64,000 nt of DNA from Armatimonadota bacterium (GTDB lineage: Bacteria > Armatimonadota > SYMT01): positions 340,106 to 404,105 of the forward strand of contig JAWLHY010000005.1 in NCBI GenBank assembly GCA_041690135.1, given 5' to 3'. The translations under genes were made by a program, and so were the position numbers. Positions within the stretch are counted from its first letter, which is position 1. Each line of letters starts with the position of its first letter. The notes under the pieces were generated by a model. That model made no database searches and was not told the DNA's origin. It was given only the letters and a program-made list of their open reading frames with translations. This document shows positions 5,928-64,000 of this stretch, one piece after another.

Positions 5928-6124
5928 ACCTCAAGCTCTCCTACCGGTTCCGGCCGGCTCCAACCTGCCACTCCCTACCAGTCCAGCAAACCGGGTCCCC
6001 CACCGGGTCCCGGCCGCATGCCCGTTCGCCCGGTTGGGGTTTCCTGTGCCGTGTACCGGGTAAAGGCATAGCAAACGCACTTTCCAGGCCTTCCGGTCCT
6101 GTCACGATACGGAGGAAGTCTGCT

Positions 6125-30200: not shown

Positions 30201-30979
30201 CGGTAAGGCCAGACGGAGCGGGGCCGGTCCTTTTCGTAGCCGTTGGTGTCCGCGTAGCGGGCCAGGTCCAGCCATTTGCGCGCCCACCGCTCGCCGTAGT
30301 GGGGAGAGGCGAGGAGGCGGTCTACCACCTTCTCATAGGCGTTCGGGCTCGGGTCCTTGATGAAAGCGACGGTTTCTTCCGGCGTGGGCGGGATGCCGAT
30401 CAGGTCGAGGTAGACACGGCGGATCAGCGTGTATCGATCCGCGGGCGGCGATGGCTGGAGACCCTGCTTTTCCATCCGCGCCAGCACGAAGTGGTCGATG
30501 CCGCTGCGCGGCCAGTCTTTCCGCTTCACCGGAGGCAGCGCGGGAAGTTTTGGCGCCACGAACGCCCAGTGGGGCCGGTACTCCGCGCCTTCCGCTATCC
30601 ATCGGCGTAGAACCTCCTTGTCTCGCTCCGAGAGGGGGTTCTTGGTGGCCGGCGGAGGCATAACAAGGGCCTCGTCCTTCGACAGGATCCGCTCTACCAG
30701 GCTGCTCTGGTGCGGCTTTCCCGGGACGATGGCCTTGAGCGCGAGGGCGGAGGTGCGGTCATCCAGCCGAAGGCCGGCCTCGCGGGTCTTGTCGTCGGGG
30801 CCATGGCATTTGAAGCAGTGGCGGGAGAGGACGGGCCGCACGTCCCGGTTGAAGTCGACGCCGGGTGTGGCCGGCTTCTTGGGCGCCCCCTGCGGCACTC
30901 CTTTCGGCGCCCCCAGGGTCGGAACCGTTGCCACTGCCGCCAAACCGACCAACGCACCGGCAATCCACGCTCGCATCAT
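27239..30979 (-). CDS. PSCyt/DUF1549/DUF1553 (PSD1) large secreted protein
   Basis: 1246 aa. Signal peptide, cytochrome-like [19 protein letters not shown] (PSCyt) motif, [11 protein letters not shown] (DUF1549) and the long C-terminal DUF1553 region. Confidence 0.8.
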
Positions 30980-31029
30980 CAGGCCTTTCCGCTCATCGCC
31001 TTCGTCGCCGACCTTTTATACTCCACCCC

Positions 31030-44600: not shown

Positions 44601-44923
44601 TCCACGTTGCGGGGAATCACCACGCCGATGGGCACCTGGCGGTAGTTCGAGGCGTCCGTGGCGTAGAGCGCGCGGCTGCCCGGATCGAACCGCAATTCTC
44701 CGTCCAGCAGCGATTCCAACTCTTGCTCCAGGCGGTCGGCGGCGATCTCACGCCGGCTCGAGCGATTGGCGGGGGCCGTGGAAGCGTTCGGCAGGACGGG
44801 AAGCGGTTCCGGAGCGGTGGTTCCGGATTCCTGGCGGGTGGTGGCGGACATGCTCTCTCCCTTCGCGCGCGCCAGCCACTCGCCCGGGCGGACCCGTCGC
44901 GGTGGCCGGCGGTGGTTCGTCAC
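41678..44923 (-). CDS. FAD-linked oxidase fused to 4Fe-4S and CCG domains (YdiJ-like), paralog 2
   Basis: 1081 aa, same domain order as 2847..5927: FAD PCMH domain (GGGTSIAGQ), CLSCKGCKQECP, C-terminal CCG motifs. Lacks the EG/QK-rich insertion. Confidence 0.85.
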   Translation of the reverse strand: MTNHRRPPRRVRPGEWLARAKGESMSATTRQESGTTAPEPLPVLPNASTAPANRSSRREIAADRLEQELESLLDGELRFDPGSRALYATDASNYRQVPIGVVIPRNVEDVVATVGAARRYGAPLLARGGGTSIAGQCCNVAVLMDFSKYLNGVLEIDPERRLARVQAGCVLDTLRKAAREHDLTFGPDPATHRWCTLGGMVGNNSCGVHSVMARMAGLGSRTSDNIHEMEILTYDGVRMRVGPTSEEELERIIREGGRKGEIYGRLKALRDRYADLIRERFPKLPRRVSGYNLDELLPENGFNVARALTGTESTCVVVLEVTTHLIPLPRERVLLLLGYPDVYQAADHVTEVLEFQPTGLEGIDGKFIEDLRKKDLNRKEICLFPEGNGWLLAEFGGNTVEEARERACRLMEKLRDREDAPSVKLFDDPEQQEMIWDVRENGLGATSHVPGERENWEGWEDSAVPPERVGHYLRDLHKLLERYDYHTSVYGHFGDGCIHARIDFDLKTAEGIRKWRSFLDEASDLVIGYGGSLSGEHGDGQARGELLPKLFGEELMEAFREFKAIWDPEGKMNPGKVINADPITTNLRYGAAYLQPELKTHFQFPSDHFSFGYAMERCVGVGKCRKEDVGTMCPSYMATREEMHTTRGRARLLFEMLQGDPLEHGWQSEHVKESLELCLSCKGCKQECPVQVDMATYKAEFLAHYFEGKRRPRQAYIFGFIHWWARLASLLPGMANFVAHAPGLRDLMKRAGGIAPDRELPAFAPQTFKQWFQKRAGARNQASARGRDSRRGPVILWPDTFNNHFHPEIAQAAVEVLEAAGFEVRVPQRDFCCGRPLYDWGFLDTAKQWLRQILTELQPEIQAGVPVVCLEPSCMSVFREELTNLFPNHEDAMRLQRQTFLLGEFLRERAPDFELPDLTRQAVVHGHCHHKATAGLDADRELFEAMGLDFQVLNSGCCGMAGAFGFEPGDKYEVSMQCGERVLLPAVREAPKDALIITDGFSCHEQIRQTTDREALHLAQVLRMALRQDEPVPRDYPESAFDRLEEDAADKAAATLRTAAIVGTGAVLGAGLVWALQRRRK

Positions 44924-50002: not shown

Positions 50003-50461
50003 TCGGCTCCGGACGAGAGTCCACAGATTACGCAGCGCATGCGTCCGAATGGAATGGGAAAGATGGGAAAGATGGGGCTCCGCGGGTGCGCGGGGCCCCG
50101 CCTTTATCCCGTTCGGGTGCGTTCAGGCCGGTAGCTTTCGCAGAGTGGCCGCGTCGTGGGGAGTGGAGCAGGACATGAAGAGTGACCGTCGCTATCCGAC
50201 GCCGATAGAGACCGGTGAAAAAGTGCTGCGGAAACTTCGGGAGATGTCCCGAGAGGAGATCGAGGAGGCGATTGACCGGGAAGGTCGCCGCCTACAGGAA
50301 GCGGCGGCGCGGGGGTGTGCCCAACGCCGCGAAGAGCTCGCCCGCCGCTGAGTGCCACTCGGATTCCCAAGCCGTAGCCGGCCCCAAGCGCTTTGTGCTC
50401 AAGAATGACTGGGCGGCGGCGAAGCTCGTGGGCTGCTTTGCCCACGAGTCGCACCTGGAGA

Positions 50462-50648
50462 ACTTCACGGATGCATCAAGAGCGGCAAGCGCCCGAACGC
50501 GGGCGTCGAAGACGGCCACAAGTGCACGCTCCTGTGTTTATTAGGAAACATCGCTTACCGCCCCGAGAGCACGCTGAAGATCGACCCGAAGACCGGTCAC
50601 CTCCTGAAGAGCAAGCCCGCCGCCCTCTGGGGGGCGCGAGGACCCTAA
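50462..50648 (+). pseudogene. Remnant of the 3' end of a Gfo/Idh/MocA oxidoreductase gene
   Basis: Translates to CIKSGKRPNAGVEDGHKCTLLCLLGNIAYRPESTLKIDPKTGHLLKSKPAALWGARGP. This matches the last ~60 residues of the intact gene at 48722..50002 (nucleotide identity roughly 80%). It has no N-terminal body and no start codon. Confidence 0.7.
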
Positions 50649-50972
50649 GGGCTGTGCGCCCAAGGGCTAAGCAGCAAGGCCGCCTAGTCAACCAAGTAAG
50701 CCTATTAATAGCCACTTGCTGCCAGGTCTTTGCATTGGAATGAAGCCTTCGGGGATTTCGTTGGACACGATCATCCGCCAATCCATTTCTACACAAGTGC
50801 AGGCCAGATGACGCGTACTGCACAGGGTCGATGATCCAAATGATAGTCCGCAAGGAATACATTACTTATTCACCCCGGTCGGTATCTGGCCCTGCTGACG
50901 TTAGGTAGGCGCCTCCATTGACTTGGCGTGCATCGAGCCGCCGTGTATTTCAGGCGCGGGTTTTGCAACAGA

Positions 50973-53777
50973 TCATGTGGGCAATGCGCCCGGCGCGAGA
51001 AGCCAATTCCAGTCCGTCTGGGTGAAGGAACCAGTGCGGAACCGTTCTCGCAGAGCGTGGACGTCGGGAGCGAGGTTGGGGACCGCTTCCTCTGCGGCGA
51101 CCGCTTCGGCGTGGGGCATGGCGTCGGCGGCGAGGTCTGCGAGCGTCAGCACAGGAAGGCTACAGGTACCGCTGCGTACGAGCTGCTGCACGGCAGTGAT
51201 GACTGCAATCTCCTGGGGCAGCTCGGCATGGAGGTTGCGTGCGAGGAAACGGCCGCCGACCTCAGGAGCGTTTACGGCGCCAGCGGAGCGGAGCGGAACC
51301 GTGCCGTCTCCGCGAGTGTTGGCGGTGCCAAATAGGTTGGCGACGGTGGGGTGCCGTTGGCTGACGACCAGGTAGGCACGCGTCAGCAGCGGACTGCCGC
51401 TGATCTTGCCCTTCAGCGCGCGGCTGCGCTTGAGGTGCAACTCGGAGGGCGCCAACTGTGGATCCGGCCAGCCGTTGGTGCGGTAGAGGGGGTGCGCGTC
51501 CCCGAAAACGGCGGGGTCTGGCAGCATGTCGAGCAGGCCGGAGAGCGAGCAGGCCATCAGCTGGAAATCGCGAACGGTATCGTTCCGTGATAGGAACGCG
51601 AGCTTCTTGAGGGTATCGTAGGTGCCGAGCACGGCCTGCATCGACGCATAGCTCCCGTGCAGGGGGGAGCCCAGCAGCACTGCGCTCTCCACCCGATCGC
51701 TCCATTCCCGGTGCCGGGCCGCGTAGAGGCAGGCCACCAGACCACCCATCGAGTGGGCGACGAGCGCGAACCTTTTGTGCGGACGCTGGGCGGCGAGTTC
51801 CTCGATGAACCGGTGGAGACTGTCCGCCAGTGCTTCGATCGGCTTGCGCCAATCGTAGGAGAACTCGTTGACTACGAACCCGGCGTTGCGCCAAGTTCGG
51901 GAGGCGCGGGCGTAGGTGAGCCGGAGCATGCCGTCCGGCTTGAGCACCTGCCCCGAGGTGGCTTCGCGCACGCCGTCCGGATCGAGCGAGAGGCGCTCGG
52001 CCAGATCGCCCGCGAAGAACGCCAGGGGGTTGATCCAGAGCCGCCCGCCCATGCCGGCGGTGCGGGCTAGGTGCCCGCCGAGGATGCCGTGGATGAAGAC
52101 GATCTCCGGCAGCGCGGGATCGGCGCGGCGCCCGAAGAGCCCTGACAGGAACGATTCCTCCAGGGCGACGGACTCCACCGTGGGCTCCCCGAGCGATACC
52201 AGGGTCAGTTCCCGGATGAGGGCATCAGCCTCCGCGGGCGGCAGCACCGCGTAGAGGCGCCGGGCCGTTTCGGCGGGATGGTCCTGCAGCTCGGCGGCGA
52301 TGGCCGCATCATCGGTCTGCTCGTACCAGGCGGTGGGCGAGACCGCTTCCGGCGCTGCTGCCGGGGTCAGCCCGAGGGACGCCGGCGCGGGCAACGGAGG
52401 ACCGGGCGCTGCTGGGGCCGGCGTGCCAGTCTCGCTCGCCGCCGGGTTGGAGCGGGCCGCGCGCCGCGTGTAGACGGTGGGACCGGAGCCGCGGTAGGTG
52501 TCCCAGTAACGGAGCCATTCCGGATCCGGCTGCTCCGGCGCGTCTTCCGGCACAGGGCTGAACCGGAAGCCCAGCGCCCGCAGGTAGGGATCTCGAGCCA
52601 GCTCCCAGGCGGGCACCGCCCAGTTGGTGAGCAGGTACTGCCCCGCGAAGTGGAGGCCGATCACCTCTCCCGTGAGCAGATCGAGGATCGCAGAGCCGGA
52701 GTTACCGGTTAGAGTGGAGCAGTCGTGCGTGAGCGCCTCCACCTCCGGGCGATTGAGGGGCGCAAAGCGGGAGAGCGGCTCCCGGCCGCCGTTCCGCACC
52801 ATGCCCAGGAGCCCGGGGAGGAGCCGCTTGCGGCCGTAGATTCCCCGGAACTCCCGGTCCTGGACCTCTACGTTGGAGAAGGGGTTCCGGTGCGGATAGC
52901 CCACGGTGACCACGTAGCGGCTCTCCAGCGGGCCGGCGGGGCGGACGGAGGCGAGGGTCAACGGGCGGGGCATCGCAGCCCCTAGCGGCGCCCGCACGGC
53001 CAGGACCGCGGCGTCCCAGTATGGGTGGATAAGGGCGACGTCTTCCACCTCCAGCAGCACTGGCGCCGGCTCCGGGGTGCCGGACGGGTGGACCTCACGG
53101 CGGGTGTCCAGAGCCGCCGCTCCGGGCCGGTAGGAGAGCGTACCGCTGCCGGGGTGCCCATGACCCGACGCGAACAGCTGCGCGACGTGCCGATTCGTCA
53201 GCAGCAGCCCCTCCCCCACGAAGAAGGCGGTGCCGCCGAACGGACGGAGCGGGTCCTGCGGCAGTTCCACGCGGCCAATGGCGGGGAGGGCGGCCTCCAG
53301 CAGTTCCCGCTCCCGGGGGCGGCCGAGGAATTCGAAAGGGAAGGCCGGCGTCTGGTACGTACCGCCGGTGACGTCGATGACGGGGCGCTCTCCGGGCAGG
53401 ATCACCTCTTCCAGCACTAACGCTTCCCGGGCGGTGAGTGGGTCCCCGTTCACCAGCTTGGTGACTACGTTCTGCGCGGTGCGGATCGTCTCGTCGGTAA
53501 GCCCTGGCGATGGGAGGGTGAAGGACTCGAAGGCCGCTTCCTCCCGGGCAGCCTGCTGCTGCCGGGACGTCAGCATCCGGGCGACGCTTTCCTCATTGAT
53601 CGGCCGCGCGGGTGGGAGCAGAGCCGGCGCGCTTCCTTCCGCCGGGATCCCCTCTTCTTCTCCCCGCTGGAATCGCTCGTGGAAGGCCTGCGCGGGCCGA
53701 TCCGAAGGGATTTTGCGTACCTGCTCGAAGTAGCGCAGGAGACGCTGCTGGTGGGCAGGAGAGTACGGATCGCTCAT
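50973..53777 (-). CDS. Multidomain putative effector: N-terminal helical adaptor, trypsin-like (S1) serine peptidase domain, Pro/Ala-rich linker, C-terminal alpha/beta-hydrolase (LCAT/PGAP1-like lipase) domain
   Basis: Start set at ATG 53777 (MSDPYSP..., RBS AAAGGA); the ORF track start is 53876. Peptidase region GGTAFFVGEGLLLTNRHV (His) ... TGNSGSAILD (Ser). Lipase region ...FALVAHSMGGLVACLYA (GxSxG nucleophile elbow). Confidence 0.7.
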   Translation of the reverse strand: MSDPYSPAHQQRLLRYFEQVRKIPSDRPAQAFHERFQRGEEEGIPAEGSAPALLPPARPINEESVARMLTSRQQQAAREEAAFESFTLPSPGLTDETIRTAQNVVTKLVNGDPLTAREALVLEEVILPGERPVIDVTGGTYQTPAFPFEFLGRPRERELLEAALPAIGRVELPQDPLRPFGGTAFFVGEGLLLTNRHVAQLFASGHGHPGSGTLSYRPGAAALDTRREVHPSGTPEPAPVLLEVEDVALIHPYWDAAVLAVRAPLGAAMPRPLTLASVRPAGPLESRYVVTVGYPHRNPFSNVEVQDREFRGIYGRKRLLPGLLGMVRNGGREPLSRFAPLNRPEVEALTHDCSTLTGNSGSAILDLLTGEVIGLHFAGQYLLTNWAVPAWELARDPYLRALGFRFSPVPEDAPEQPDPEWLRYWDTYRGSGPTVYTRRAARSNPAASETGTPAPAAPGPPLPAPASLGLTPAAAPEAVSPTAWYEQTDDAAIAAELQDHPAETARRLYAVLPPAEADALIRELTLVSLGEPTVESVALEESFLSGLFGRRADPALPEIVFIHGILGGHLARTAGMGGRLWINPLAFFAGDLAERLSLDPDGVREATSGQVLKPDGMLRLTYARASRTWRNAGFVVNEFSYDWRKPIEALADSLHRFIEELAAQRPHKRFALVAHSMGGLVACLYAARHREWSDRVESAVLLGSPLHGSYASMQAVLGTYDTLKKLAFLSRNDTVRDFQLMACSLSGLLDMLPDPAVFGDAHPLYRTNGWPDPQLAPSELHLKRSRALKGKISGSPLLTRAYLVVSQRHPTVANLFGTANTRGDGTVPLRSAGAVNAPEVGGRFLARNLHAELPQEIAVITAVQQLVRSGTCSLPVLTLADLAADAMPHAEAVAAEEAVPNLAPDVHALRERFRTGSFTQTDWNWLLAPGALPT

Positions 53778-53926
53778 GGATCTATCCTTTAAGTTACAGG
53801 CGAACCGGCGACCGGGCGTGGGGACGGCCTGAGGCGACCGGCAATGCAGGGAACTTTCTACCGGATGGTTGAACAATAGAGGGTGTCATTCCTCGCTCTG
53901 GGGGTAACGAGGCTGCCCGTATTGAG

Positions 53927-54014
53927 ATGAGTGCCGGTTGAGCCTGCGCCTGGTGAGCGAGCTAGGGGCTACAGGGGGCAAAGCCTGCCTGCGCAGGCTG
54001 GGAGTTCCGGCACT
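53927..54014. promoter_or_regulatory. Long interrupted inverted repeat in the divergent promoter region of the two peptidase genes
   Basis: GAGTGCCGG-TTG-AGCCTGCGC ... GCGCAGGCT-GGGAGTT-CCGGCACTC: two 9-bp arm segments on each side with a ~40-nt central region. Located between divergently transcribed genes 50973..53777(-) and 54342..55526(+). Confidence 0.45.
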
Positions 54015-54341
54015 CAACCAACGGTCTTCCCGAGAGGCGGGTACAAGCATGGTCTATTTGTGCTCGCCAGGACCCCGGACGAGAGATCCAATCGGGAGGC
54101 AGGTACCGGTCTGGCCTGGTGCCGAGATCCCTCCTGCAGTTAGGATGACTCCTTATGGGGGGCGACAATGCCCGGGTACGGTATTTTGTAAGTGGAAGCC
54201 GTTCAGTAGTGTTGCGTTCAGGATAACTGGTCCCGCAAGGTGTGAAATGCGTGAATGCCGTTGTTTGAGACCCACTACGACGAACCGGTTTCTGCTTTCG
54301 GTCAGCAATAGGTCAGCATTCGAACTACCTGACTACCGACT

Positions 54342-55526
54342 ATGCCCACACTCACGCGAGCTCAAGAAGATAACCTGATCCGGATCCTCTCCCGGCATCC
54401 GGATTTCCAGACGGCGGAGGACCGGCTGCGGTTGCTGCTGCAGATCATCCCAACCGCGGCGGACGGGGACGAGACCGCGTACCACGTGAACCTGGGAAAG
54501 GATGCCATCCGGGTCGCGGAGGGATTGCTCGCGCAGCTCAAGTTCGAGGGGGTGGGCCCGGACGGGGTCCACCGCCTGCGGCACATGGTAGCCGGTCTGC
54601 GGGAGAAGGTGCGAGACGAGCGGGACCGGGGACGGCTAGCGGGGATGCTCACCTACCTGGACCAGCACACCCCGGCGGTGGCGCCGCCCCCGCCGCCCCC
54701 GGCGCCGCTCCGCCCGGACCCGCAGCCGCGGCTGGACCCCGCGGACTGGCGGGGCAAGAATTCCGACGCACCGCCGTATGAGAAGGTGGTGCGGGTAAAT
54801 ACGCTGCGGCAGTTCTATCTGCTGGAGCGTGCGGTGCCTGCTTCACGCGGGGTGTTCCGCATCGAGGGACGTCCACCCGGCACGGAAGGCGAGCCGGCGG
54901 CTTCCACCGGCTTCCTCATCGCCCGCGGTGTGGAGACGGCCCCCGGCGGACCAAGGGTGGCGCTAGCGATGACGAACCACCACGTGATCGCCACTCTGGA
55001 AGAGTTCCCCGGTTATGAGTGCTGGTTCAATTACCGGCTTGACCTGGACGGCCGCGAGCCGGTGCCCTCGCCGCAAGGGTTCTGCAAGCTGCAGCCGCTG
55101 CCGCTGGCCGAGTGGTTCTTTACGGACGCGGGGCTGGACGTAACGGTGTTTGCGCTCGACGATGCGGTGGTGCCGGCGAATGCGGTGGCTCTGGGGGTGC
55201 GAGAGGCCCGCCCACTGGAGGGGGCGCGGGTGCCGATCATTCAGCACCCGAACGGGGAGTACCTGCAGATCTCGTTCCAGAGCAACTTCATCGCGTACGC
55301 GAACGACGAGATCCTGCAATACACCACTACTACCCTGCCCGGCTCTTCGGGCTCCCCTGTGTTCAATGAGCGGTTCGAGGTGATCGGGATCCACTCAATG
55401 GGCGGGGACCTGCCCCACCCCGGTCAGCCAGGACTGACTACCCTAATCAACCAGGGCACTTCAATCAAGGCGATCCTGGCGGTTCTGCCGGGGGCTATCC
55501 GTGGGCGGGTTATGGTGCTGGGGTAA
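54342..55526 (+). CDS. Trypsin-like (S1) serine peptidase with N-terminal alpha-helical adaptor (EAD-like) domain
   Basis: N-terminal ~110-aa helical region (EDNLIRILSRHPDFQTAEDRLRLLLQIIP...). Pro-rich linker (PPPPPAPLRPDPQPRLDP). Catalytic domain with LAMTNHHVI (His) and TLPGSSGSPVF (Ser). Confidence 0.75.
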   Translation: MPTLTRAQEDNLIRILSRHPDFQTAEDRLRLLLQIIPTAADGDETAYHVNLGKDAIRVAEGLLAQLKFEGVGPDGVHRLRHMVAGLREKVRDERDRGRLAGMLTYLDQHTPAVAPPPPPPAPLRPDPQPRLDPADWRGKNSDAPPYEKVVRVNTLRQFYLLERAVPASRGVFRIEGRPPGTEGEPAASTGFLIARGVETAPGGPRVALAMTNHHVIATLEEFPGYECWFNYRLDLDGREPVPSPQGFCKLQPLPLAEWFFTDAGLDVTVFALDDAVVPANAVALGVREARPLEGARVPIIQHPNGEYLQISFQSNFIAYANDEILQYTTTTLPGSSGSPVFNERFEVIGIHSMGGDLPHPGQPGLTTLINQGTSIKAILAVLPGAIRGRVMVLG

Positions 55527-55728: not shown

Positions 55729-57408
55729 TTGAGTGGAGGGGGAGGTGTTAGCCCGGCTGACGGACAATTAACACTTGGGAGACAGCGGCTAATCCGAATA
55801 AGCCGCGACGAGGCACTGTCGTCTCCGGTACTGGTCTTGAGTTCGAACGTGCTCTTTCCACTGTTACAACCGGCCGACGAACGGCTGCTCCGCGACTATC
55901 TGCTCTCCGTGCTGGCACGAACCGGAGACGAGCCGGAGCGGCGCCGGGCCTTGTGCAAATACTTGCCGGACTCGGTAGCCCAGCTGCCGGCGGAGGCGTG
56001 GCTGACCGAGAGGCGGCTGCGACTGGACCGATCCCACGCTGAGATCCTGGAGCAGTTCTTCGAAGCGCTTCAGAGCCATCCGCCGGCGCTGTTGGCGCAC
56101 TTGGAAGTGCTGAGCCAGAGCGTGAAGGACGGGCCGACACGCGAGGAGTTCGCGCGGATGCGGGACGGGCTGCGGTTGGCCCTCGATCCGCTGACGGAGG
56201 CGCAGCGCCTTCTGGACGCCGCCGCTTCGGCGGACCCGGACGTCCTTCCGGACGCACTGGCCGCCGGTCTCTGGAAGGCGCTGGGGAAGCGCGAGTCGGG
56301 TACGTTCTGGCAGGCGGTGGCGCTGCTGGTGCCGCATCCCGCCCGCACTTACCAGGAGTCGGGACAGGAAGTGCTGCGCCTGCCGCTAGTGGTGGCGCTG
56401 GAGCGAACCGCGGCCCGGGTGGGCTTGTCCGGGCCAGACCGGACCCAGTATGGCGAACTCGTCCAGCAGGCGGTGGAGCGTCTTTACCCGCCGCCTCCCA
56501 AAGCCCCGGAGGCAGACCAAACAGCGCCGGGGCCTACCGCGCCGGCCTTCGATCCGATCACCGTGTACGTGCTGGCACTCGGCTCTAACACCCTGAGCAC
56601 GGCGGACACGCGCTACCGGCTGTGGTACACGGATCCGCAGGGAGACCGCGGCGCCCGAGACCTGACCGGCACCCTGAAGGAACTGCAGGCCGGCTTCTCC
56701 GCCTGGATCAGTGACGTCCTGTTCGAGTGGTCCGGCGATACCCCACTGGTGGAGTTTGTGCTGCCCGAGGAGTGCCTGGAGTGGGACGTGGAGCGTTGGG
56801 AAGTGGCCCTCAACCCGCGCAACCCAGCCACCGGAAAGCCGATTGGCACGGCGTTTCCGGTGGTGCTGCGGAACTGGGGGCGGTACGAAGCTCGGCCGCA
56901 CATCAAGCGCCTGGAGCGCCGCTGCAAGGAGTTGAAGGGCACCGGCACCCTGTACTGGTGCCACGAGCCGGCTCATGAGCCGGGCTTGCCGGTCTACCTG
57001 GACCACTCGGACTGCCGGACGGTGCTCTACCTGGGCGCGGGCTACCCCTTGCAGCGGACCGGCGGTAGAAACCTCTGGCTGGCGGTACTCCGGAACGGGG
57101 TTCCAGTAGTGATCTGGCGCCGCACCGCCGGCAGCGGAGCGGTGCCCATCCCGGACCAACTGGAGAAGCTACTCCATCAGGCACAGCGTCTCCACCCGTT
57201 CAACGAGCTGCCAAGTAAGATCAAGGACTGGCGCAGCCTGGTGATCCAGGAGCCACCGCAGTACGACGACACGGCGGATGAGGTCTCCCTGCTCTGGGAG
57301 AACCCCTACCGGCTCCCCGCCGCCCCACCCCTGCCCGAGGGGGCACCCACCGCACCCGACGAAGCTCGCCCGGCGCCGGCGCCCACCAGCACGGGGCGGA
57401 TCGATTGA
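55729..57408 (+). CDS. VMAP-like protein (vWA-MoxR-associated protein position) with N-terminal EAD-like helical motif
   Basis: 559-aa ORF immediately upstream of and overlapping (4 nt) the MoxR ATPase gene. There is no in-frame ATG near the 5' end, so TTG 55729 or a downstream GTG is the likely start. The N-terminus DERLLRDYLLSVLARTGDEPERRRAL resembles the N-termini of both peptidase effectors. No enzymatic motif recognised. Confidence 0.55.
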   Translation: MSGGGGVSPADGQLTLGRQRLIRISRDEALSSPVLVLSSNVLFPLLQPADERLLRDYLLSVLARTGDEPERRRALCKYLPDSVAQLPAEAWLTERRLRLDRSHAEILEQFFEALQSHPPALLAHLEVLSQSVKDGPTREEFARMRDGLRLALDPLTEAQRLLDAAASADPDVLPDALAAGLWKALGKRESGTFWQAVALLVPHPARTYQESGQEVLRLPLVVALERTAARVGLSGPDRTQYGELVQQAVERLYPPPPKAPEADQTAPGPTAPAFDPITVYVLALGSNTLSTADTRYRLWYTDPQGDRGARDLTGTLKELQAGFSAWISDVLFEWSGDTPLVEFVLPEECLEWDVERWEVALNPRNPATGKPIGTAFPVVLRNWGRYEARPHIKRLERRCKELKGTGTLYWCHEPAHEPGLPVYLDHSDCRTVLYLGAGYPLQRTGGRNLWLAVLRNGVPVVIWRRTAGSGAVPIPDQLEKLLHQAQRLHPFNELPSKIKDWRSLVIQEPPQYDDTADEVSLLWENPYRLPAAPPLPEGAPTAPDEARPAPAPTSTGRID

Positions 57409-57425
57409 AAACACAGGTATCTCCC

Positions 57426-58574
57426 ATGCAGCTCGAGCCCCCTACAGCTACTCCCAATCCGGACGTGCCCGCCGACTGGTGGGCATTCCACGGTGACCGC
57501 AACGCCGATGAGAAGATCGCGGCGGAGCGACGGTCCCGGCTGGGCCCCGCCCCGCCCTGGCGGCCGTCCCGGGCCGTGCCGGACAACACCCTCTACACGC
57601 CCCGTCCGGAGCCGCTGGGAGAGACCTATCGCTGCGGGAAGGCGGTGATCGAGATGGTCAACGCCGCTCTCGTGCTGCGGCGGCCGCTGTTGATCACCGG
57701 TGAGCCGGGCAGCGGGAAGTCGTCCCTGGCGTATGCCGTGGCGCGGGAACTGGGCCTGGGCCGCGTGCTGCGGTGGAACATTACCAGCCGCACCACCCTG
57801 CGGGACGGTCTGTACAGCTACGATGCCCTCGGGCGGTTGCAGGCTTCCGACCTGGGCGGCGACAGTGACCAGGTGGCGGAGATCGGGCAGTTCATCACCC
57901 TGGGGCCGCTGGGCACCGCGCTGCTGCCCTGGTCCACACCGCGGGTGCTGCTGATCGATGAGATCGATAAGAGCGACGTGGACCTCCCGAACGACCTGCT
58001 GCATGTGTTCGAAGAGGGCGAGTTCGAGATCCCGGAACTGGTGCGGCATCCGGATCCGGACGACCGGGGCGTGCGGGTGTGGCCGGACAAGGCGGACCGT
58101 CCGCCCCTGGACCGAACGAACCCGGTGCCGCCGGAGCAGTACCAGGTAACGGTGCACCGGGGCCGGGTGCAGTGCAGCCAGTTCCCCTTCGTGGTGCTGA
58201 CCAGCAACGCCGAGCGAGAGTTTCCGCCGGCGTTCCTGCGCCGGTGCCTGCGCCTGCGGCTGCCCCGACCCGGCCGCGACCAACTGAAGGAGATCGTGCG
58301 GGCCCACTTCTCCAATCCGGAGCGGCCGGTGCCCTCCGAGACGCAGCTCGACGAGCTGATCAGCCGGTTTCTCAAGCGGCGGGACGTGGGCGCCCTGGCC
58401 AACGACCAGCTGCTGCAGGCGCTGTTCCTGCGGCTGCGGGGCGGGGAGGCGATCGACAGCAACCCGGAAGATGACCTCCGGAACCTGATCAACCGGCTGC
58501 TCCATCCCCTGAACCAGCCGGAGGCGGCGGTGGAGCCGGACGAGGACGCGGATGACGGCTGCGGGCGCGGATAA
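57426..58574 (+). CDS. MoxR-family AAA+ ATPase
   Basis: Walker A LLITGEPGSGKSSLAYAVA. Walker B VLLIDEIDKSD. Sensor-1 VVLTSNAEREF. Arg finger PPAFLRRCLRLRL. ATG 57426 is chosen; a TTG at 57405 is the alternative. Confidence 0.85.
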   Translation: MQLEPPTATPNPDVPADWWAFHGDRNADEKIAAERRSRLGPAPPWRPSRAVPDNTLYTPRPEPLGETYRCGKAVIEMVNAALVLRRPLLITGEPGSGKSSLAYAVARELGLGRVLRWNITSRTTLRDGLYSYDALGRLQASDLGGDSDQVAEIGQFITLGPLGTALLPWSTPRVLLIDEIDKSDVDLPNDLLHVFEEGEFEIPELVRHPDPDDRGVRVWPDKADRPPLDRTNPVPPEQYQVTVHRGRVQCSQFPFVVLTSNAEREFPPAFLRRCLRLRLPRPGRDQLKEIVRAHFSNPERPVPSETQLDELISRFLKRRDVGALANDQLLQALFLRLRGGEAIDSNPEDDLRNLINRLLHPLNQPEAAVEPDEDADDGCGRG

Positions 58575-61500
58575 GTCGCCATCGGCGCCGGAATCCCTGA
58601 TCCAGTTGCTCGACTGCCTGAGCGGGCTGGAAACCCGCCTGCTCGCCGCGGAATTGGCGGACGTGCTCTGGCTGGCCCAGCGGCTGCCGGAGCGGCAGGC
58701 ACCTTCCCGGTCCGGGGAGGCGGCCGAGGCACCGGCAACGGAGGAGACGGAGAGCCCCCGGGATTCGGCCCGGTCCGAGGCCGGATCGCCCGACGGCACG
58801 CCTGCCCACACGGACGCCGACTCGGGTACTAACGCGGAGGTCGGACAGGAGAGGGAACGTCCACCGGGATCTGTCCCACCGACGGACGCCGGGCAGCCGG
58901 AGGACGAGCGGATCCGACTATTTCCAGGCCGTCCCAACTCCCCCGAGCAGACGGGCGCGGGCGAGATGCCTTCTTCCTCATTCCAGGGCACGGCAGCCCG
59001 CGCCCTCCCCCGGACCCGGCAGATCCTGCGGGCCCTCCGCCCACTCGCGGGCCGGGTCCCCTCGCCCCGGCGGGACGAGCTGGAGGTGGACGTCGAGGCA
59101 ACGCTCGAGCGGATTACGGAGGGGCTGCTGGCTGCCCGCGCTCGTTCGGAAGCCAGTGGGGCGGCGCGCCGCAACCGTCCCATTCCCCGCACGCCCGTGT
59201 TGCGGCCGGCCGAGGTGCGGCCCTACGAGCTGCACCTGGTGGTGGATACCAGCGCCAGCATGGCGGTGTGGGAGGAGGCTGCGGGAGAGCTGGCACAGCT
59301 GCTGGTGGGCCTGGGCAGCTTCTCGGACGTGCGGGTCTGGTACCTAGACACCCAGTCTGGCGGGGAGCCGCCGCTCTACGCGGGAGTCCGGTGCGGCGGG
59401 GGGACCCAACGCGGGGAGCGGCGGTCCGGTGCCGAGCTGCGGGGCGGGGGCGGCAGCATTCCGGGTGCCGGGGCGCGGCTGGTGCTGGTGCTGACTGACG
59501 GCCTGGGGCCAGCATGGTGGGATGGCCGGGCGCTGGACCTGCTGGCCTCCTGGGCGGACACGGGCCGGGTAACGCTGCTCCAGACGCTGCCGGAGCGGCT
59601 CTGGGGCCGCGCGGTGCACGGTGTACCTCGCTGGCTGGTGGGCGCCCACGAGGCCGGTGTCCCGAACCGGCGGCTGCTCACGGCTCCCCGGCCGGGCGTC
59701 CGCAGCGCGGCGCCGGCGAACGCCCCCCGGTATGATCGAGACCCGGAACGAGTTTACGTTCCGGTGGTCGCGCTAGACCCGGACCCGCTGCACACCTGGG
59801 CGCGACTGATGACCGGACGCGGCGGGGTGTGGCTGCCGGCGTTTCGCATGCGCCTGAAGTCCTCACCGGCCCAAACCGTCGCGCCTCTCGAGCCCGTAGA
59901 CCCGGAGGAGCCGGAAACCGAGGCGGCGCGGGCAGCCCGGATGGTACGCGAGTTCCGGGCTGGCGCCCCCTGGGAGGCACGCCGCCTGGCGGAACTGTTC
60001 GCGGCCGTGGGCACCCTCACCATACCGGTGATGCGCGCCATCCAGGATGCGATGGTGGCCGGCTCCGGGCTGGAGGCACTGGCGGAGGTGCTGGCCAGCG
60101 GCCTGCTGGAAGCCCGCGAAGCTGCGGGCGGGACGGTCTACGCTTTCCGTGGAGAGCAGCACGGGATAGCCCTGCGCCAGCGGCTGTGGCAGCGCGCAAG
60201 CGTTCCGGACACGCTGCGGGCCATGCAGACGGCACTGAACGAGCTCCAGCGGAGCGTGGGGGATTTTCTGGCCGGAATGAACGCCGAAGGTGCAGCCCAG
60301 CCGCTCCAGGTGCTTGATCCACAGGGCCTCCAGCGGCTGTCGGCGGACCACGCCCTGGCGCCGTTCGCGGCGGTGGCGGCGGAGTACCTGGAGTCGCTGG
60401 GCGGGCAGTACGTGCGGAGCGCCCGGACGTGGCAGACAGGCATCGCGTTACCGCCGCATCAAGGAGACGCCGGCGATCCCACGTCGTATTCGCTGAACGA
60501 TCTGATCGCGTTGTCCCGGAACCTGGACGGACAGGGCCCGTGGCTGCAGGGGAAGGTACCGCCCATCCATCTCCTCACCGCAGCGGAGAAGCTCGGGGAG
60601 CCGATCAGCGCGGTAATGCACCGGCTGGGCCGGTTTGAAGCCCGGTTCGAGCTGGAGCTGCCGGTGCTCGACGACCTCGAGCTGACGGCACTTGATGAGC
60701 CGCTGCCTAACGAAGCCGATCGGATCGTGCTGTCCCACGGTCTGGACGGCCAGACGCCCTGGCTGCACGGGCGGGTCGGGAAAGAACACCTCCTGGCAGC
60801 GGCCGTCCAACTGCGAGAGCCCGTGGTGACCGTGCGGCAGCGACTGGAGCGGTTCGCGGCCCTGTTCGAGCTAGAGCTCCCGGCACCCGGCGACCCCTCC
60901 CCCACCCAACCCCTGCGGGTCTTCGTCTCGGCGTCGTTCCGGTATTGCCACCAGGAACGGCGGGCGATCTTGGCGGAGTTGGCCCGGCGCCCGGAGATCG
61001 TGGACACCAGTTGGGAAGCACTGCCGGCGGACCAGCGGGACCGGCAGCACCGGCTGCCGGTGGTGGCCGCATGCGATCTCTTCCTGCTGCTCCCGGGGGA
61101 GGGGCCCAGCGCGGGGCTGGAGGCGGAATACGCCGCAGCATTGGAGCACGGGAAGACCTGCCTCGCATACTTCCACCGGGACGCGGCACCGCTGGACGAA
61201 ACCACGCGGGAGTTCTGGAAGAGACTCCGGGACCGGCACGGCGTTCGGACTTATGGCAGCTCGGAAGAACTGATCCGGCAGGTCTCACTCGACCTCGATT
61301 TTGAGCTGGCGCGGCTGACCGGGAAAGTTCAGGAGCACCCGATGGAGGTGGTGGTCCTGTTCTCGGATGGGCAATGCGCGGCTCTGCCGGTAGGCGTCGG
61401 CGTGTTGGACGCGGCGTTCCACGTGGACCCCGAGCTAGGGCTGCGGATGAACGGCGCGCGCGTGAACGGCGAGGCGGTGCCGCTGAGCTATCAACTCCGT

Positions 61501-64000
61501 CAACGGGATCAGGTGGAGCTGGTCACGACCCCCCACAGTTATCCGTCCCGGGAGTGGCTCGACTGGGTTCAGACCGAGCGGGCGCGGCACGCCATCCGGG
61601 ACTGGCTGCGCCGCTACCAGGTGTATGTGGCTGCCGGCGAGATTCCCGACATCCCGGGCCTACAGTTTGAGTGGGCGGTCCGGTCAGACATCCCCGAGAG
61701 AGAGCGAGCAGCAGTCCTCCGCGAATGCGGCCTCTTCATAGCCACATTCCGGCCGCCTGGGTTTGACTACTGGGAAGGGATCCGGGACGGAGATGTGTCG
61801 GTGGTCCGTGGCGCAGTAGGACAGCACCTTCCAGAGTTCGCTCTGGCCCGGCGGTTGGGACTCCGCTGCCTCATCTACCTGTATGACGATGTGGACGGCC
61901 GCAAACCCGCGGGAATGCTCACAGCGGAAACACTCTATCGCTGCGCTAATGTCTCAGAGTTGCGTGAGGCCATGCGCGGCGACTTCCAGGCGGCTGTGGC
62001 AAACCAATGGCCGCTAGAGGGGATTCGAGACGGACGAGAGCCCTTGCTCCGCGACCTGTACCAAATGCTAGGGCTACCCCCACTACGCAGTGATCTGGAG
62101 ACCTTCGAGCTCTCGAGGTTCGCTGGCGAGCGAGGATGGTTAGTCCAGGACTTGAACCGTCCAAATCTGGCGATGCTGGTGTCCGCCGTGCGGGGTTTGC
62201 AGAAGGCACCCGCGGCCGTATGGGCGTTGCCACTGCCGCGAACGAACGTCGAGAATGAACTTCTAAACCGCCTGGCAGGCTGGCTGCGCCAGGAACCGGC
62301 AAGCTCTCTGCGCGCGCTGCAGCGTTTTTGGGGAATGTGCGGTCGGGCGGCGCAGCAACCCACTGACGGGCGGGCGGTGGCGGGTTACCTTCTAGCGTTG
62401 GTGTGGTTGGGGCAACTAGTAGAGGGGAACTTTGGGAGGGCCGATCCCGCTCTGGTACTGTCCCCGCTGAATCCCCCCAACCTGCGCGATTTCCTCGTTC
62501 TCGTGGGGGGACGGCAGCCGGCGGCGCTCGATTTCCGCATTGCCGTGGATGGTGTGACAGTGGCGCACCTCCCCCGCCTTCGTCTCGACACACCCGAATC
62601 GGAGGTGAGGCGGCAGGCGCTGGAGGTTCCCGAGGTCGTTGAGCGTATCGTGAACCGAAACGTCCGCTCTGTCGAGGTGAGCTTCGGGACTGGGGTGACA
62701 ATTTCCACCGAGCCGGCATCCCACCCATCATTGACTGGATGCCGTGTCCTCTGGTGTGATCCCAAGCAAGACCGTGTCAATAGCAGGGAGATAAGCTGGC
62801 TCCAGCAACACGGCGCCGTGATTGCCCGCGTACCGCCCAGCCACGTTCAGCTAGCATTAGGGAGTGGGCTTCCATACGACGCGCTGATTACGAGCATGGG
62901 CGGCGTGTTGCCAGAGGAAGATAGTCTGGGCCTTCATGTGGTTAGGATCGCGAGGCGGCTACGGCCGGAACTCCCGGTGATCCTGTTTACCCACCGCACC
63001 GTGCCATCGGTTCAGGAGGCCAGAGAGGCGGGAGTTGCGCTGATCACCCCCAAAGTTGAGGTGATCCTGCGGGAACTCCAAACGCTGGTCGACCGCCGAA
63101 CCCCGACCCTGCCCGAGGATTCGGAGGGGTTCTACACGGAGCGCGGTCTTTGCGACGTGATCGACCGGTACCAACTCCGGAGTGGGCGCCAGGAAGCCGA
63201 CGCGGTGCTCACCCTGCTGCTGCTGTTCCGGACGGAGACGCAGCGGACGTGGTTGGCAACCACCCACCGGCATCTCTACATCTTGCTGGATGATGCGGAG
63301 ACGCGCGCTACGGGACCGGATACGGAGCGCGTGATCCAGGAAGAACTGACGCTGAAGGAGGCCCAGCCCGTCTTCAGCAGCGAAGCACGGGAGTGGCTGG
63401 AAACGCGTCTTCTCCACATCGGCCGGGCGCGGAACTGGCATTACACGCTCTCCCTCCACCCGCGTGCGCAGGACCTCGAGGTGACTGTCCGCGAGTTGAT
63501 TCTTAATGCGAGACACGGTGATCTTAACCCAACATACCGGCAGCTCTTGCTGCTGGCTGCCGAATACGAGGCCATCCAAGCGACACAAGAGGCCGGTGGC
63601 GAGCGCTCACGCCGTTCGGTATCGGTCTACAAGAGGATGCAGCGATCCAGCCAGGCAGCTGACAGGGCACTGCTTTCCCGCCTAGCTACCAGCGAGAGCC
63701 CGGGCGAACGGTTGGCGGCGGTAGCCATCCTTCAGGAGAAGCCAGCTTCGGAGTATCTGCACTGGCTAGCTGCCCGCGTGCATGAGGACCAGGCGTTTAT
63801 CGGGTATCAGGCCGCGCTGGCCCTAACCACGGCGGCCGAGGAACTCAATTCGGTCTACCTGGAAGAGGTAGGCACAAGCATCCGCTCGGCTCGGGATACA
63901 CTGACCTCAGAGGTGAAGGCCGGCACTGACACGGATCGCTACCGCGTACTCGAGCGAGGACTCGAGGTCCTCGTACAGCGCGAGCGGCAGGATGAGGCGC
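58552..64000 (+). CDS. Giant vWA-domain protein (>1816 aa, 3' end outside window) with DUF4062/TIR-like, TGS, receiver-like and HEAT-like modules; vWA partner of the MoxR ATPase
   Basis: A frame-1 ORF opens after TGA 58510-12. The first ATG is 58552, overlapping the MoxR stop by 23 nt. I found no stop codon through position 64000; it is absent from the ORF track because it is open-ended. MIDAS-type vWA motif LHLVVDTSASMAVW at ~59233-59274. DUF4062-like RVFVSASFRYCHQERRAILAEL (~60913). TGS-like VVVLFSDGQCAALPVGVGVLDAAFHV...ARVNGEAVPLSYQLRQRDQVELVT (~61342-61530). CheY-like CRVLWCDPKQD...PVILFTH (~62740-63000). HEAT-like C-terminal repeats. Confidence 0.75.
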   Translation, partial: MTAAGADKSPSAPESLIQLLDCLSGLETRLLAAELADVLWLAQRLPERQAPSRSGEAAEAPATEETESPRDSARSEAGSPDGTPAHTDADSGTNAEVGQERERPPGSVPPTDAGQPEDERIRLFPGRPNSPEQTGAGEMPSSSFQGTAARALPRTRQILRALRPLAGRVPSPRRDELEVDVEATLERITEGLLAARARSEASGAARRNRPIPRTPVLRPAEVRPYELHLVVDTSASMAVWEEAAGELAQLLVGLGSFSDVRVWYLDTQSGGEPPLYAGVRCGGGTQRGERRSGAELRGGGGSIPGAGARLVLVLTDGLGPAWWDGRALDLLASWADTGRVTLLQTLPERLWGRAVHGVPRWLVGAHEAGVPNRRLLTAPRPGVRSAAPANAPRYDRDPERVYVPVVALDPDPLHTWARLMTGRGGVWLPAFRMRLKSSPAQTVAPLEPVDPEEPETEAARAARMVREFRAGAPWEARRLAELFAAVGTLTIPVMRAIQDAMVAGSGLEALAEVLASGLLEAREAAGGTVYAFRGEQHGIALRQRLWQRASVPDTLRAMQTALNELQRSVGDFLAGMNAEGAAQPLQVLDPQGLQRLSADHALAPFAAVAAEYLESLGGQYVRSARTWQTGIALPPHQGDAGDPTSYSLNDLIALSRNLDGQGPWLQGKVPPIHLLTAAEKLGEPISAVMHRLGRFEARFELELPVLDDLELTALDEPLPNEADRIVLSHGLDGQTPWLHGRVGKEHLLAAAVQLREPVVTVRQRLERFAALFELELPAPGDPSPTQPLRVFVSASFRYCHQERRAILAELARRPEIVDTSWEALPADQRDRQHRLPVVAACDLFLLLPGEGPSAGLEAEYAAALEHGKTCLAYFHRDAAPLDETTREFWKRLRDRHGVRTYGSSEELIRQVSLDLDFELARLTGKVQEHPMEVVVLFSDGQCAALPVGVGVLDAAFHVDPELGLRMNGARVNGEAVPLSYQLRQRDQVELVTTPHSYPSREWLDWVQTERARHAIRDWLRRYQVYVAAGEIPDIPGLQFEWAVRSDIPERERAAVLRECGLFIATFRPPGFDYWEGIRDGDVSVVRGAVGQHLPEFALARRLGLRCLIYLYDDVDGRKPAGMLTAETLYRCANVSELREAMRGDFQAAVANQWPLEGIRDGREPLLRDLYQMLGLPPLRSDLETFELSRFAGERGWLVQDLNRPNLAMLVSAVRGLQKAPAAVWALPLPRTNVENELLNRLAGWLRQEPASSLRALQRFWGMCGRAAQQPTDGRAVAGYLLALVWLGQLVEGNFGRADPALVLSPLNPPNLRDFLVLVGGRQPAALDFRIAVDGVTVAHLPRLRLDTPESEVRRQALEVPEVVERIVNRNVRSVEVSFGTGVTISTEPASHPSLTGCRVLWCDPKQDRVNSREISWLQQHGAVIARVPPSHVQLALGSGLPYDALITSMGGVLPEEDSLGLHVVRIARRLRPELPVILFTHRTVPSVQEAREAGVALITPKVEVILRELQTLVDRRTPTLPEDSEGFYTERGLCDVIDRYQLRSGRQEADAVLTLLLLFRTETQRTWLATTHRHLYILLDDAETRATGPDTERVIQEELTLKEAQPVFSSEAREWLETRLLHIGRARNWHYTLSLHPRAQDLEVTVRELILNARHGDLNPTYRQLLLLAAEYEAIQATQEAGGERSRRSVSVYKRMQRSSQAADRALLSRLATSESPGERLAAVAILQEKPASEYLHWLAARVHEDQAFIGYQAALALTTAAEELNSVYLEEVGTSIRSARDTLTSEVKAGTDTDRYRVLERGLEVLVQRERQDEA

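Follow-up and report, generated by a model that had tools for sequence, protein, structure and literature searches.

Why a bacterium should fuse a trypsin-like protease with a lipase in a single polypeptide is the question raised by a gene of an Armatimonadota bacterium (GTDB lineage Bacteria; Armatimonadota; SYMT01; GenBank assembly GCA_041690135.1). The gene lies on contig JAWLHY010000005.1, in a window of 64,000 nucleotides (positions 340,106 to 404,105 of the forward strand) that is the whole stretch of DNA analysed here; its coordinates and those of its neighbours are collected in Table 1, numbered from the first nucleotide of the window. The two catalytic halves could act side by side on protein and lipid, or one could control the other. 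Comparison of the protein with its relatives, their gene neighbourhoods and published systems favours control, with a probability of about 0.6 that the target protein is a cytoplasmic, protease-gated phospholipase and acts as executioner effector for the VMAP-MoxR-vWA system beside it, a nucleoside triphosphate (NTP)-dependent conflict system.

The minus-strand frame is open from 53876 to 50973, and the ATG at 53777, preceded at a distance of about 9 nt by a Shine-Dalgarno-like AAGGA, gives a product of 934 amino acids (aa). This start agrees in alignment with the N-terminus of the closest homologue, P0002 (relatives carry P numbers and the loci of homologues L numbers), and the codon-position GC contents of 0.73/0.52/0.83 are typical of coding sequence and agree with those of the neighbouring genes. 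The database protein P0001 is 100% identical to the product. A preliminary description made from the nucleotide sequence had proposed a single long fusion polypeptide of 930 aa; the fusion stands, and its length is corrected to 934 aa. Neither a signal peptide nor a transmembrane segment was found (maximum 19-residue Kyte-Doolittle score of 1.34), and residues 1 to 180 have no Pfam match and no trafficking or delivery domain; the protein is predicted to be cytoplasmic.

The protease half bears a complete match to the Pfam family Trypsin_2 (PF13365): aa 182-375 cover all of its 144 profile positions (1-144), with 48.1 bits against a cut-off of 27.6 (E 2.7e-12). The catalytic residues H197 (TNRHV), D255 (WDAAV) and S360 (GNSGS), the codons for which were verified at nt 53187, 53013 and 52698, stand in the canonical order and are invariant in the 19 family members aligned, these being full-length relatives of 35-59% identity. 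Ahead of the peptidase fold, residues E123, R131 and P132 are conserved in the same alignment. In the AlphaFold model of the protein (mean predicted local distance difference test score, pLDDT, of 73.5, rising above 90 in the hydrolase), Foldseek matches the protease half to SplA, HtrA and enteropeptidase. With a complete profile, an intact triad and a SplA/HtrA fold, the full S1 peptidase domain initially read from the sequence is borne out.

In the second half of the protein, the Pfam family LCAT (PF02450) matches aa 630-754 (E 2.5e-10; 40.6 bits, cut-off 21), and Abhydrolase_1, PGAP1, Hydrolase_4 and Abhydrolase_8 likewise exceed their cut-offs around these residues. S676, located in the GxSxG elbow AHSMGG, is invariant in the 19 aligned members, and D824 (GDGTVP) and H850 are nearly so (at least 90%), missing only in P0002; the three codons were verified at nt 51750, 51306 and 51228. 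The best structural match of the hydrolase is lysosomal phospholipase A2 (PLA2; 4x92, E 1.6e-9, TM score 0.65), with LCAT (6mvd, E 1.3e-8) and 4r1d also matching the core, and the type VI secretion system phospholipase Tle4 is found among the structural matches of the C-terminal half. Pfam, Foldseek and the conserved triad confirm the LCAT/PGAP1-like alpha/beta-hydrolase domain previously recognised from its AHSMGG motif, which is assigned from profile and model to the LCAT/lysosomal PLA2 superfamily. The domain shares with LCAT and lysosomal PLA2 (PF02450; 4x92, 6mvd) the alpha/beta-hydrolase fold, the Ser-Asp-His triad, the GxSxG elbow and a TM score of about 0.65; it differs from them in that identity is only 15-17%, the protein is predicted to be cytoplasmic and fused to a protease, a mini-domain and tail of its own are present, and phospholipase or acyltransferase activity is predicted. 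The preliminary description had stated that failed domain searches or degenerate catalytic Ser/His motifs would speak against it; both domains score above their Pfam cut-offs and neither motif is degenerate, indicating that, as far as sequence can tell, both catalytic domains are real and their catalytic centres intact.

Between the two domains, aa 411-556 (146 aa) consist of 33% Pro plus Ala, in partial agreement with the Pro/Ala-rich linker of about 150 aa described at the outset. The disorder is confined to aa 430-477 and 528-549, however, leaving a true linker of about 48 aa, as aa 478-528 form a folded helical mini-domain in which W484 and E486 are invariant in the 19-sequence alignment. 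Downstream of the core, the disordered segment aa 888-902 separates it from a two-helix tail with conserved residues R912, G916, D922 and W925. Within this segment E891 is kept in 16 of 19 sequences and E897 in 15 of 19, and an E-G/A pair occurs in the disordered segment ahead of the core in 16 of 19. Stand-alone lipase homologues (367-490 aa) retain both the mini-domain and the tail, and these elements are therefore assigned to the lipase instead of the linker. The lipase module (approximately aa 478-934) thus comprises the helical mini-domain, the alpha/beta core and the two-helix tail.

A database search with the target protein returned 116 relatives, approximately 23 sharing the full architecture and approximately 80 the protease module only, the latter aligned to query residues ~60-430 with 35-49% identity (E 1e-75 to 1e-40). 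The alternative C-termini on this module are in the majority Endonuclease_NS (NucA) domains, with Endonuclease_1, Lipase_3, PLD, metallophosphatase and others also represented; at the C-terminus of the target itself Pfam gave no endonuclease match, and no NucA (Endonuclease_NS) domain was found. The protease module of the target is 48% identical to that of the NucA-fused P0025/26 and 36-47% identical to those of lipase-fused members, except for P0002 at 66%. Because NucA-fused relatives are as close as lipase-fused ones, effector domains have been exchanged on one protease scaffold, and the protease module is a constant scaffold with swappable effectors. A one-genome-per-species scan identified at least 587 relatives across many phyla, and 15 of the 80 loci retrieved are of the lipase type, matching almost the whole of the query.

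When searched alone against 1.84 billion cluster representatives, the lipase module has 85 matches at E<=1e-30 and 666 at E<=1e-10. Among the best 150 of the 50%-identity cluster representatives matched, 43 are trypsin fusions, 33 bear a long C-terminal extension, 66 are stand-alone proteins or fragments, and 8 fall outside these classes. The extensions sampled contain a CHAT caspase-like protease, a C25 protease or a second lipase, and the entire module (mini-domain, core and tail) is found directly fused to a C25 peptidase or, by way of a Peptidase_M17_N-like domain, to CHAT. At L090/L091 (8001-13299) a 434-aa stand-alone lipase-module protein, one of the more distant stand-alone homologues, is encoded two genes upstream of a CHAT-nSTAND1 protein; P0392, P0399, P0417, P0116 and P0386 are among the proteins that show these lipase-protease pairings. 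The lipase module is recurrently coupled to proteases of two unrelated clans. Together, the swappable effectors on the trypsin scaffold and the joining of the lipase to CHAT and C25 argue for a regulatory coupling of protease to effector, in the manner of a zymogen or cascade, and not for two independent weapons. The dual effector of protein and lipid that had been proposed initially retains its two intact catalytic domains, but its parallel action needs to be rethought, as the protease is the constant scaffold and the lipase is joined elsewhere to other proteases. P0237, which appeared to be a split lipase of 61% identity, was rejected as a contig-end fragment and not a separate gene.

The genes facing the target across the divergent intergenic region encode the proposed partners (Table 1). 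In the partner protease, the catalytic Ser of which lies in the motif GSSGSP, the EAD8 domain occupies 54342-54671 on the plus strand, and its match falls below the cut-off of 27 bits both for the full protein (E 8.8e-5, 23.6 bits) and for the N-terminal fragment (E 2.1e-5, 25.6 bits); 530 homologues were found, with the PF19961 annotation on most of the 120 listed, and the AlphaFold model of EAD8 is a six-helix bundle (pLDDT 86.8) without a significant Protein Data Bank neighbour. The ATPase scores 26.0 bits against bpMoxR, just under the cut-off of 27, and its assignment specifically to MoxR rests on context. The giant protein displays a metal ion-dependent adhesion site (MIDAS) motif DTSAS at nt 59245 and an LTDG motif at nt 59491, at the expected spacing and with no Pfam vWA match, in addition to two wHTH-Hsp90_Na-associated domains, TGS and a weak DUF4062 (E 0.016); its N-terminal part has a homologue in the giant protein of locus L002. 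Judged by their domains and motifs, the EAD8-trypsin, the VMAP-C protein, the MoxR ATPase and the giant putative vWA protein together constitute a VMAP ternary conflict system. DUF4062 has been described as a TIR-like NADase in a 2026 preprint, and the weak match in the giant protein raises the possibility that the adjoining VMAP system may carry an NAD-depleting effector of its own beside the lipase.

Comparable arrangements surround the homologues. In L002/L003, the gene for P0002 heads an operon transcribed in one direction, followed by genes encoding an EAD1/7-trypsin, a VMAP-C protein, an AAA ATPase and a giant beta-propeller protein. A second cassette, found in Acidobacteriota, Solibacteraceae and Cytophagales, runs from the homologue through a small P-loop ATPase and a STAND NTPase (~900-1000 aa) to an EAD5-trypsin, the STAND NTPase being present in loci L004-L011. 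L093, from a marine Verrucomicrobiales, has the divergent layout of the window, with genes for a trypsin and two TIR proteins opposite the homologue. In L002, L004, L006, L008, L010 and L011 the homologue lies 4-30 bp from, or overlaps, the ATPase or EAD-trypsin gene. Following dereplication, a second trypsin-family open reading frame (ORF) occurs within 10 kb in 13 of 18 lipase-type loci (within 4.5 kb in 11 of these 18) and within 10 kb in 20 of 37 NucA-type loci, and a recognisable NTPase is present in at least 7 of the 18 lipase-type loci, a lower bound set by the seed sequences used. An adaptor-bearing second trypsin is the constant feature across sensor types, and the linkage of the target gene to NTPases and to a second trypsin protease is conserved. 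The earlier statement that the protein is not a housekeeping enzyme is supported.

Two further arrangements were noted among the homologous loci. In Solibacteraceae-type loci (L004 6629-10004, L005 266-3641 and L011), genes for a bacterial gasdermin of 270 aa and a caspase-like Peptidase_C14 protein of 847 aa lie directly upstream of the homologue of the trypsin-lipase and overlap at their ends, placing two different membrane-killing effectors in one cluster. In L062 (Candidatus Sulfopaludibacter), genes for a 424-aa stand-alone lipase, a 427-aa trypsin, a 320-aa protein and a MoxR-like ATPase follow one another, which makes this locus a 'split' counterpart of the window's arrangement.

In the favoured mechanism, the ternary sensor formed by the giant vWA protein, the MoxR ATPase and VMAP would detect an invader and switch on EAD8-trypsin, the adaptor-bearing initiator protease. 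This protease would cut the 934-aa pro-enzyme in one of the disordered segments (aa 430-477, 528-549 or 888-902), perhaps following the conserved residues E540/E541, E891 or E897; this would activate the target's own trypsin module and/or release the LCAT/PLA2-like lipase module, and the freed lipase would hydrolyse membrane phospholipids, leading to death of the infected cell by abortive infection. We infer in which direction the cascade runs, where it cuts, which lipid is attacked and what the defence phenotype would be. The literature backs elements of the mechanism by analogy: a proteolytic cascade has been predicted for NucA-trypsin systems (Kaur, Burroughs, Iyer, Aravind, eLife 2020, PMC7159879), a pro-nuclease becomes active once its partner, a trypsin-like protease, cuts it at a specific site (Tuck et al., Science 2025, PMC12799240), the protease activity of Caulobacter LypC is essential (Nat Microbiol 2026, PMC13236601), and MoxR-vWA modules have been shown to function in threat sensing.

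Several observations weigh against this reading. The target is divergent from the VMAP system in the window and stands outside its operon, and the intergenic region between them, the promoter function of which is presumed, contains no sigma-70 consensus; a promoter and terminator scan around the target likewise gave no sites. No EAD was recognised in the target by BLASTP, by Pfam at E up to 1 or by hhalign, and a profile search of the 64 kb in all six frames gave no second EAD8 to pair with the partner protease; comparison of the VMAP and target N-termini with the EAD8 profile in hhalign yielded probabilities below 1%. The C-terminus of the vWA protein, which extends past the window end, could contain a partner EAD8. 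No component is matched by a model of PADLOC-DB v2.0.0, the only hits being weak ones of the protease domain to RT-Protease_XI (E 3e-4); there was no PADLOC match for VMAP, vWA, STAND or the small ATPase, and NCBIfam naming gave nothing useful. With the seeds used, 5 of the 18 lipase-type loci have no second protease, and the nearest stand-alone lipase homologues occur in ordinary gene contexts. P0002, the closest homologue at 59% identity (733 aa; L002 10001-12202 / L003 4227-6428), is without a hydrolase core: an internal deletion has removed the core after the nucleophile, Asp and His included, and kept the protease module and tail motif, which suggests either a function of the tail apart from lipase catalysis or decay of the P0002 gene. 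In LypC, the only tested relative of this architecture, the catalytic activity of the fused effector is dispensable (PMC13236601).

These last points bear on an unlikely alternative, in which the protease module is the real output, a second-tier protease activating or destroying other targets in the cell, and the lipase is an accessory providing stability, membrane targeting or back-up. LypC consists of a trypsin-like peptidase, a linker and a C-terminal effector; its S296A mutation abolished lysis and mutations in the endonuclease active site did not, and one LypC homologue is entirely without the endonuclease (PMC13236601). P0002, too, has lost the hydrolase core and keeps an intact protease module and C-terminal tail. 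However, 18 of 19 members, from several phyla, keep the lipase triad, the recurrence of the lipase module with unrelated proteases argues that its activity is under selection, and in the CARD system of Pedobacter the active sites of both the phospholipase and the endonuclease are required (Wein et al., bioRxiv 2023, PMC10312443). It is less probable still that the gene is a self-contained suicide or stress effector processed in cis at the linker, with the VMAP system as an independent neighbour in a cluster of conflict genes. The divergent orientation in the window and in L093, the target's want of an EAD adaptor, the three types of sensor that adjoin the family (VMAP-MoxR-vWA, STAND with small ATPase, and TIR proteins) and the several loci without a detectable partner are consistent with such independence; the tight operons (gaps of 4-30 bp, or overlaps) in the six loci listed above and the constancy of the second, adaptor-bearing trypsin across sensor types speak against it.

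A secreted or delivered enzyme, whether a polymorphic toxin used between bacteria or an exo-enzyme that digests foreign protein and lipid, is highly improbable. Tle4 is a type VI secretion system effector and appears among the structural neighbours, and the two degradative domains in one chain make the protein resemble some toxins. On the other side, the protein has no signal peptide, transmembrane segment or, in aa 1-180, Pfam trafficking domain, no secretion-system or Rhs/PAAR genes and no immunity-like conserved ORF were found nearby, and the neighbouring genes that are conserved encode cytoplasmic NTPases and adaptor-proteases. The polymorphic toxin was rejected as a candidate for want of export signals, an N-terminal trafficking domain and an adjacent immunity gene. 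Of the resemblance to abortive-infection effectors and polymorphic toxins first suggested for this protein, the conflict or abortive-infection effector fits the conserved gene neighbourhoods, and the likeness to polymorphic toxins falls with the missing signal peptide, transmembrane segment, delivery domain and downstream immunity ORF.

A tentative extension of the protease-gated phospholipase, possible but doubtful, sees in the lipase module a gasdermin-like caged executioner that is uncaged at conserved Glu-Ala/Gly sites, at the end of a two-tier serine-protease cascade under MoxR-vWA-VMAP control. The tail and/or the mini-domain would keep the lipase active site shut until the conserved Glu-Ala/Gly sites in the disordered flanks of the core were cut, with EAD8-trypsin as the initiator and the trypsin-lipase as the executioner. 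The cage would have been wired repeatedly to unrelated protease clans, trypsin here and CHAT and C25 elsewhere. If true, bacteria would have a counterpart to the initiator/executioner caspase cascade, with lipid destruction instead of pore formation as its end.

Table 1. Features of the target gene and of the adjoining VMAP-MoxR-vWA system in the window.
Feature	Position	Strand	Protein length or residues	Basis and remarks
Target gene, trypsin-like protease module plus LCAT-like lipase module	50973..53777	-	934 aa	ORF, translation, Pfam, AAGGA upstream of ATG
Constant protease module	52488..53480	-	aa 100-430	Pre-protease segment (E123, R131, P132) and S1 fold with H197, D255, S360
Disordered Pro/Ala/Thr-rich linker	52347..52490	-	aa 430-477	pLDDT ~30; 11 P and 12 A of 48; poorly conserved
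Helical mini-domain, WYE motif	52194..52346	-	aa 478-528	pLDDT 86-94; N-terminal part of the lipase module
LCAT/lysosomal-PLA2-like alpha/beta-hydrolase core	51123..52112	-	aa 556-885	S676, D824, H850; Pfam, Foldseek, alignment
Two-helix C-terminal tail, RxRFxxGxxTxxDWxWLL	50997..51065	-	aa 905-927	Preceded by disordered aa 888-902
Divergent intergenic region, target / EAD8-trypsin	53778..54341		564 bp	Presumed promoters; GC 0.58 against ~0.65 for the window
Partner protease, EAD8 adaptor plus trypsin-like peptidase	54342..55526	+	394 aa	Trypsin_2, E 1.7e-15
VMAP protein	55729..57408	+	559 aa	VMAP-C (PF20028) at aa 296-526; E 3.3e-26, 93.1 bits against 27
MoxR-like AAA+ ATPase	57405..58574	+	389 aa	AAA and AAA_5 above cut-offs; homologous to the ATPase of the L002 operon
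Giant vWA-component protein, runs off the window end	58552..63999	+	>1816 aa	vWA motifs, wHTH x2, weak DUF4062, TGS

On the other side of the target, the genes downstream encode ordinary oxidoreductases. The 970 bp between the target stop and the next gene (50003-50972; a lower GC of 0.61) could hold a 3' untranslated region, a regulatory RNA or a decayed gene; no ORF with coding-like third-position GC, Pfam match, cross-locus homologue or conserved small ORF was found there. Elsewhere in the window the genes are of the chromosomal housekeeping kind, including those for methionyl-tRNA synthetase and aconitase. A gene at 27239-31015 on the minus strand encodes a 1258-aa protein with PSCyt1, PSCyt2 (DUF1549) and PSD1 (DUF1553) domains, and such a gene is also found two genes downstream of the L093 homologue; these domains are typical of Planctomycetota and the PVC (Planctomycetes-Verrucomicrobia-Chlamydiae) group. 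Two minus-strand genes at 2847-5930 and 41678-44923 encode paralogous fusions (1027 and 1081 aa) of an FAD-linked oxidase with 4Fe-4S dicluster and CCG domains, which resemble glycolate or D-lactate dehydrogenases.

Among described systems, the closest counterparts of the target are the NucA-trypsin proteins of 'System 3' (PMC7159879), with which it shares a homologous N-terminal trypsin-like module, a toxic enzyme fused at the C-terminus and a paralogous EAD-bearing trypsin gene that is often nearby. The effector is an LCAT/PLA2-like lipase in place of NucA, however, and the gene adjoins VMAP-MoxR-vWA, whereas the NucA-trypsin genes stand alone or with a STAND NTPase. By sequence, the target is a sister architecture of the NucA-trypsin proteins and not one of them. 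In CARD-NLR-like defence operons, 'effector proteins fused to trypsin-like proteases' have been reported, and phospholipase effectors are known in systems of this type (PMC10312443). The CARD-NLR effectors and LypC of the Caulobacter LypABC system (PMC13236601) resemble the target in their succession of trypsin-like peptidase, flexible linker and effector, and in the accompanying adaptor-bearing second protease and NTPase; homologues of the target are found in cassettes of effector-trypsin, ATPase(s) and EAD5-trypsin. The window departs from these systems in that its sensor consists of MoxR, VMAP and vWA, with no STAND/NLR-like ATPase near the target within the window, and its adaptor is EAD8; the Pedobacter phospholipase effector of a CARD-NLR system is a different protein that is not fused to trypsin. 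By protease homology, the target belongs with the trypsin-effector fusions, namely the NucA-trypsin proteins, the CARD-NLR effectors and probably LypC, which was compared by layout only.

The VMAP-C, MoxR and putative vWA components and the EAD-trypsin in the window correspond to the VMAP ternary systems of Kaur et al. (PMC7159879), who also describe an 'alpha/beta-hydrolase-caspase pairing' and the pairing of trypsin with Trypco1/2. The lipase module of the target is homologous to the lipases beside CHAT-nSTAND1 and in lipase-CHAT fusions, in keeping with the hydrolase-caspase pairing; here, unlike in the published VMAP and caspase pairings, a trypsin-type protease and the hydrolase form one protein, the product of an extra gene outside the core operon. 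The 'EAD principle' of VMAP systems, by which a core component and a recruited effector carry the same EAD, is not seen in the window, where the profile search detected EAD8 once. A looser analogy is offered by the pro-nuclease of the trypsin-metallo-beta-lactamase system (PMC12799240) and by gasdermins, in which the effector is inactive until cut by an associated protease, as would be the case here; the disordered flanks of the target contain conserved residues, and its conserved C-terminal tail recalls the inhibitory peptide of gasdermins. Neither metallo-beta-lactamase nucleases nor gasdermins are homologous to the target, however, and in the target protease and effector share one chain, with cleavage only predicted.

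A literature search that did not extend to the supplementary tables of Wein 2023 and Kaur 2020 yielded no description of a trypsin-LCAT-like fusion or of a link between it and VMAP, and none of the papers found gave a biochemically demonstrated effector of VMAP-MoxR-vWA. The logic of the system is known; the lipase effector, its pairing with this sensor and the candidate 'cage' of conserved tail and mini-domain are undescribed. Protease-triggered cell-death effectors are an emerging theme common to bacterial and animal immunity, exemplified by gasdermins, pro-nucleases and CARD-NLR systems. To this theme the trypsin-lipase family adds a predicted lipid-degrading executioner on the swappable NucA/LypC trypsin scaffold, and ties that scaffold to a second class of sensor, VMAP-MoxR-vWA. 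The trypsin-lipase family is not rare, as the proportion of trypsin fusions among the best lipase-module representatives (43 of 150) illustrates, and a single biochemical study could explain many genes now unannotated beyond 'alpha/beta hydrolase' or 'trypsin-like peptidase' and test for two-step protease cascades in bacteria.

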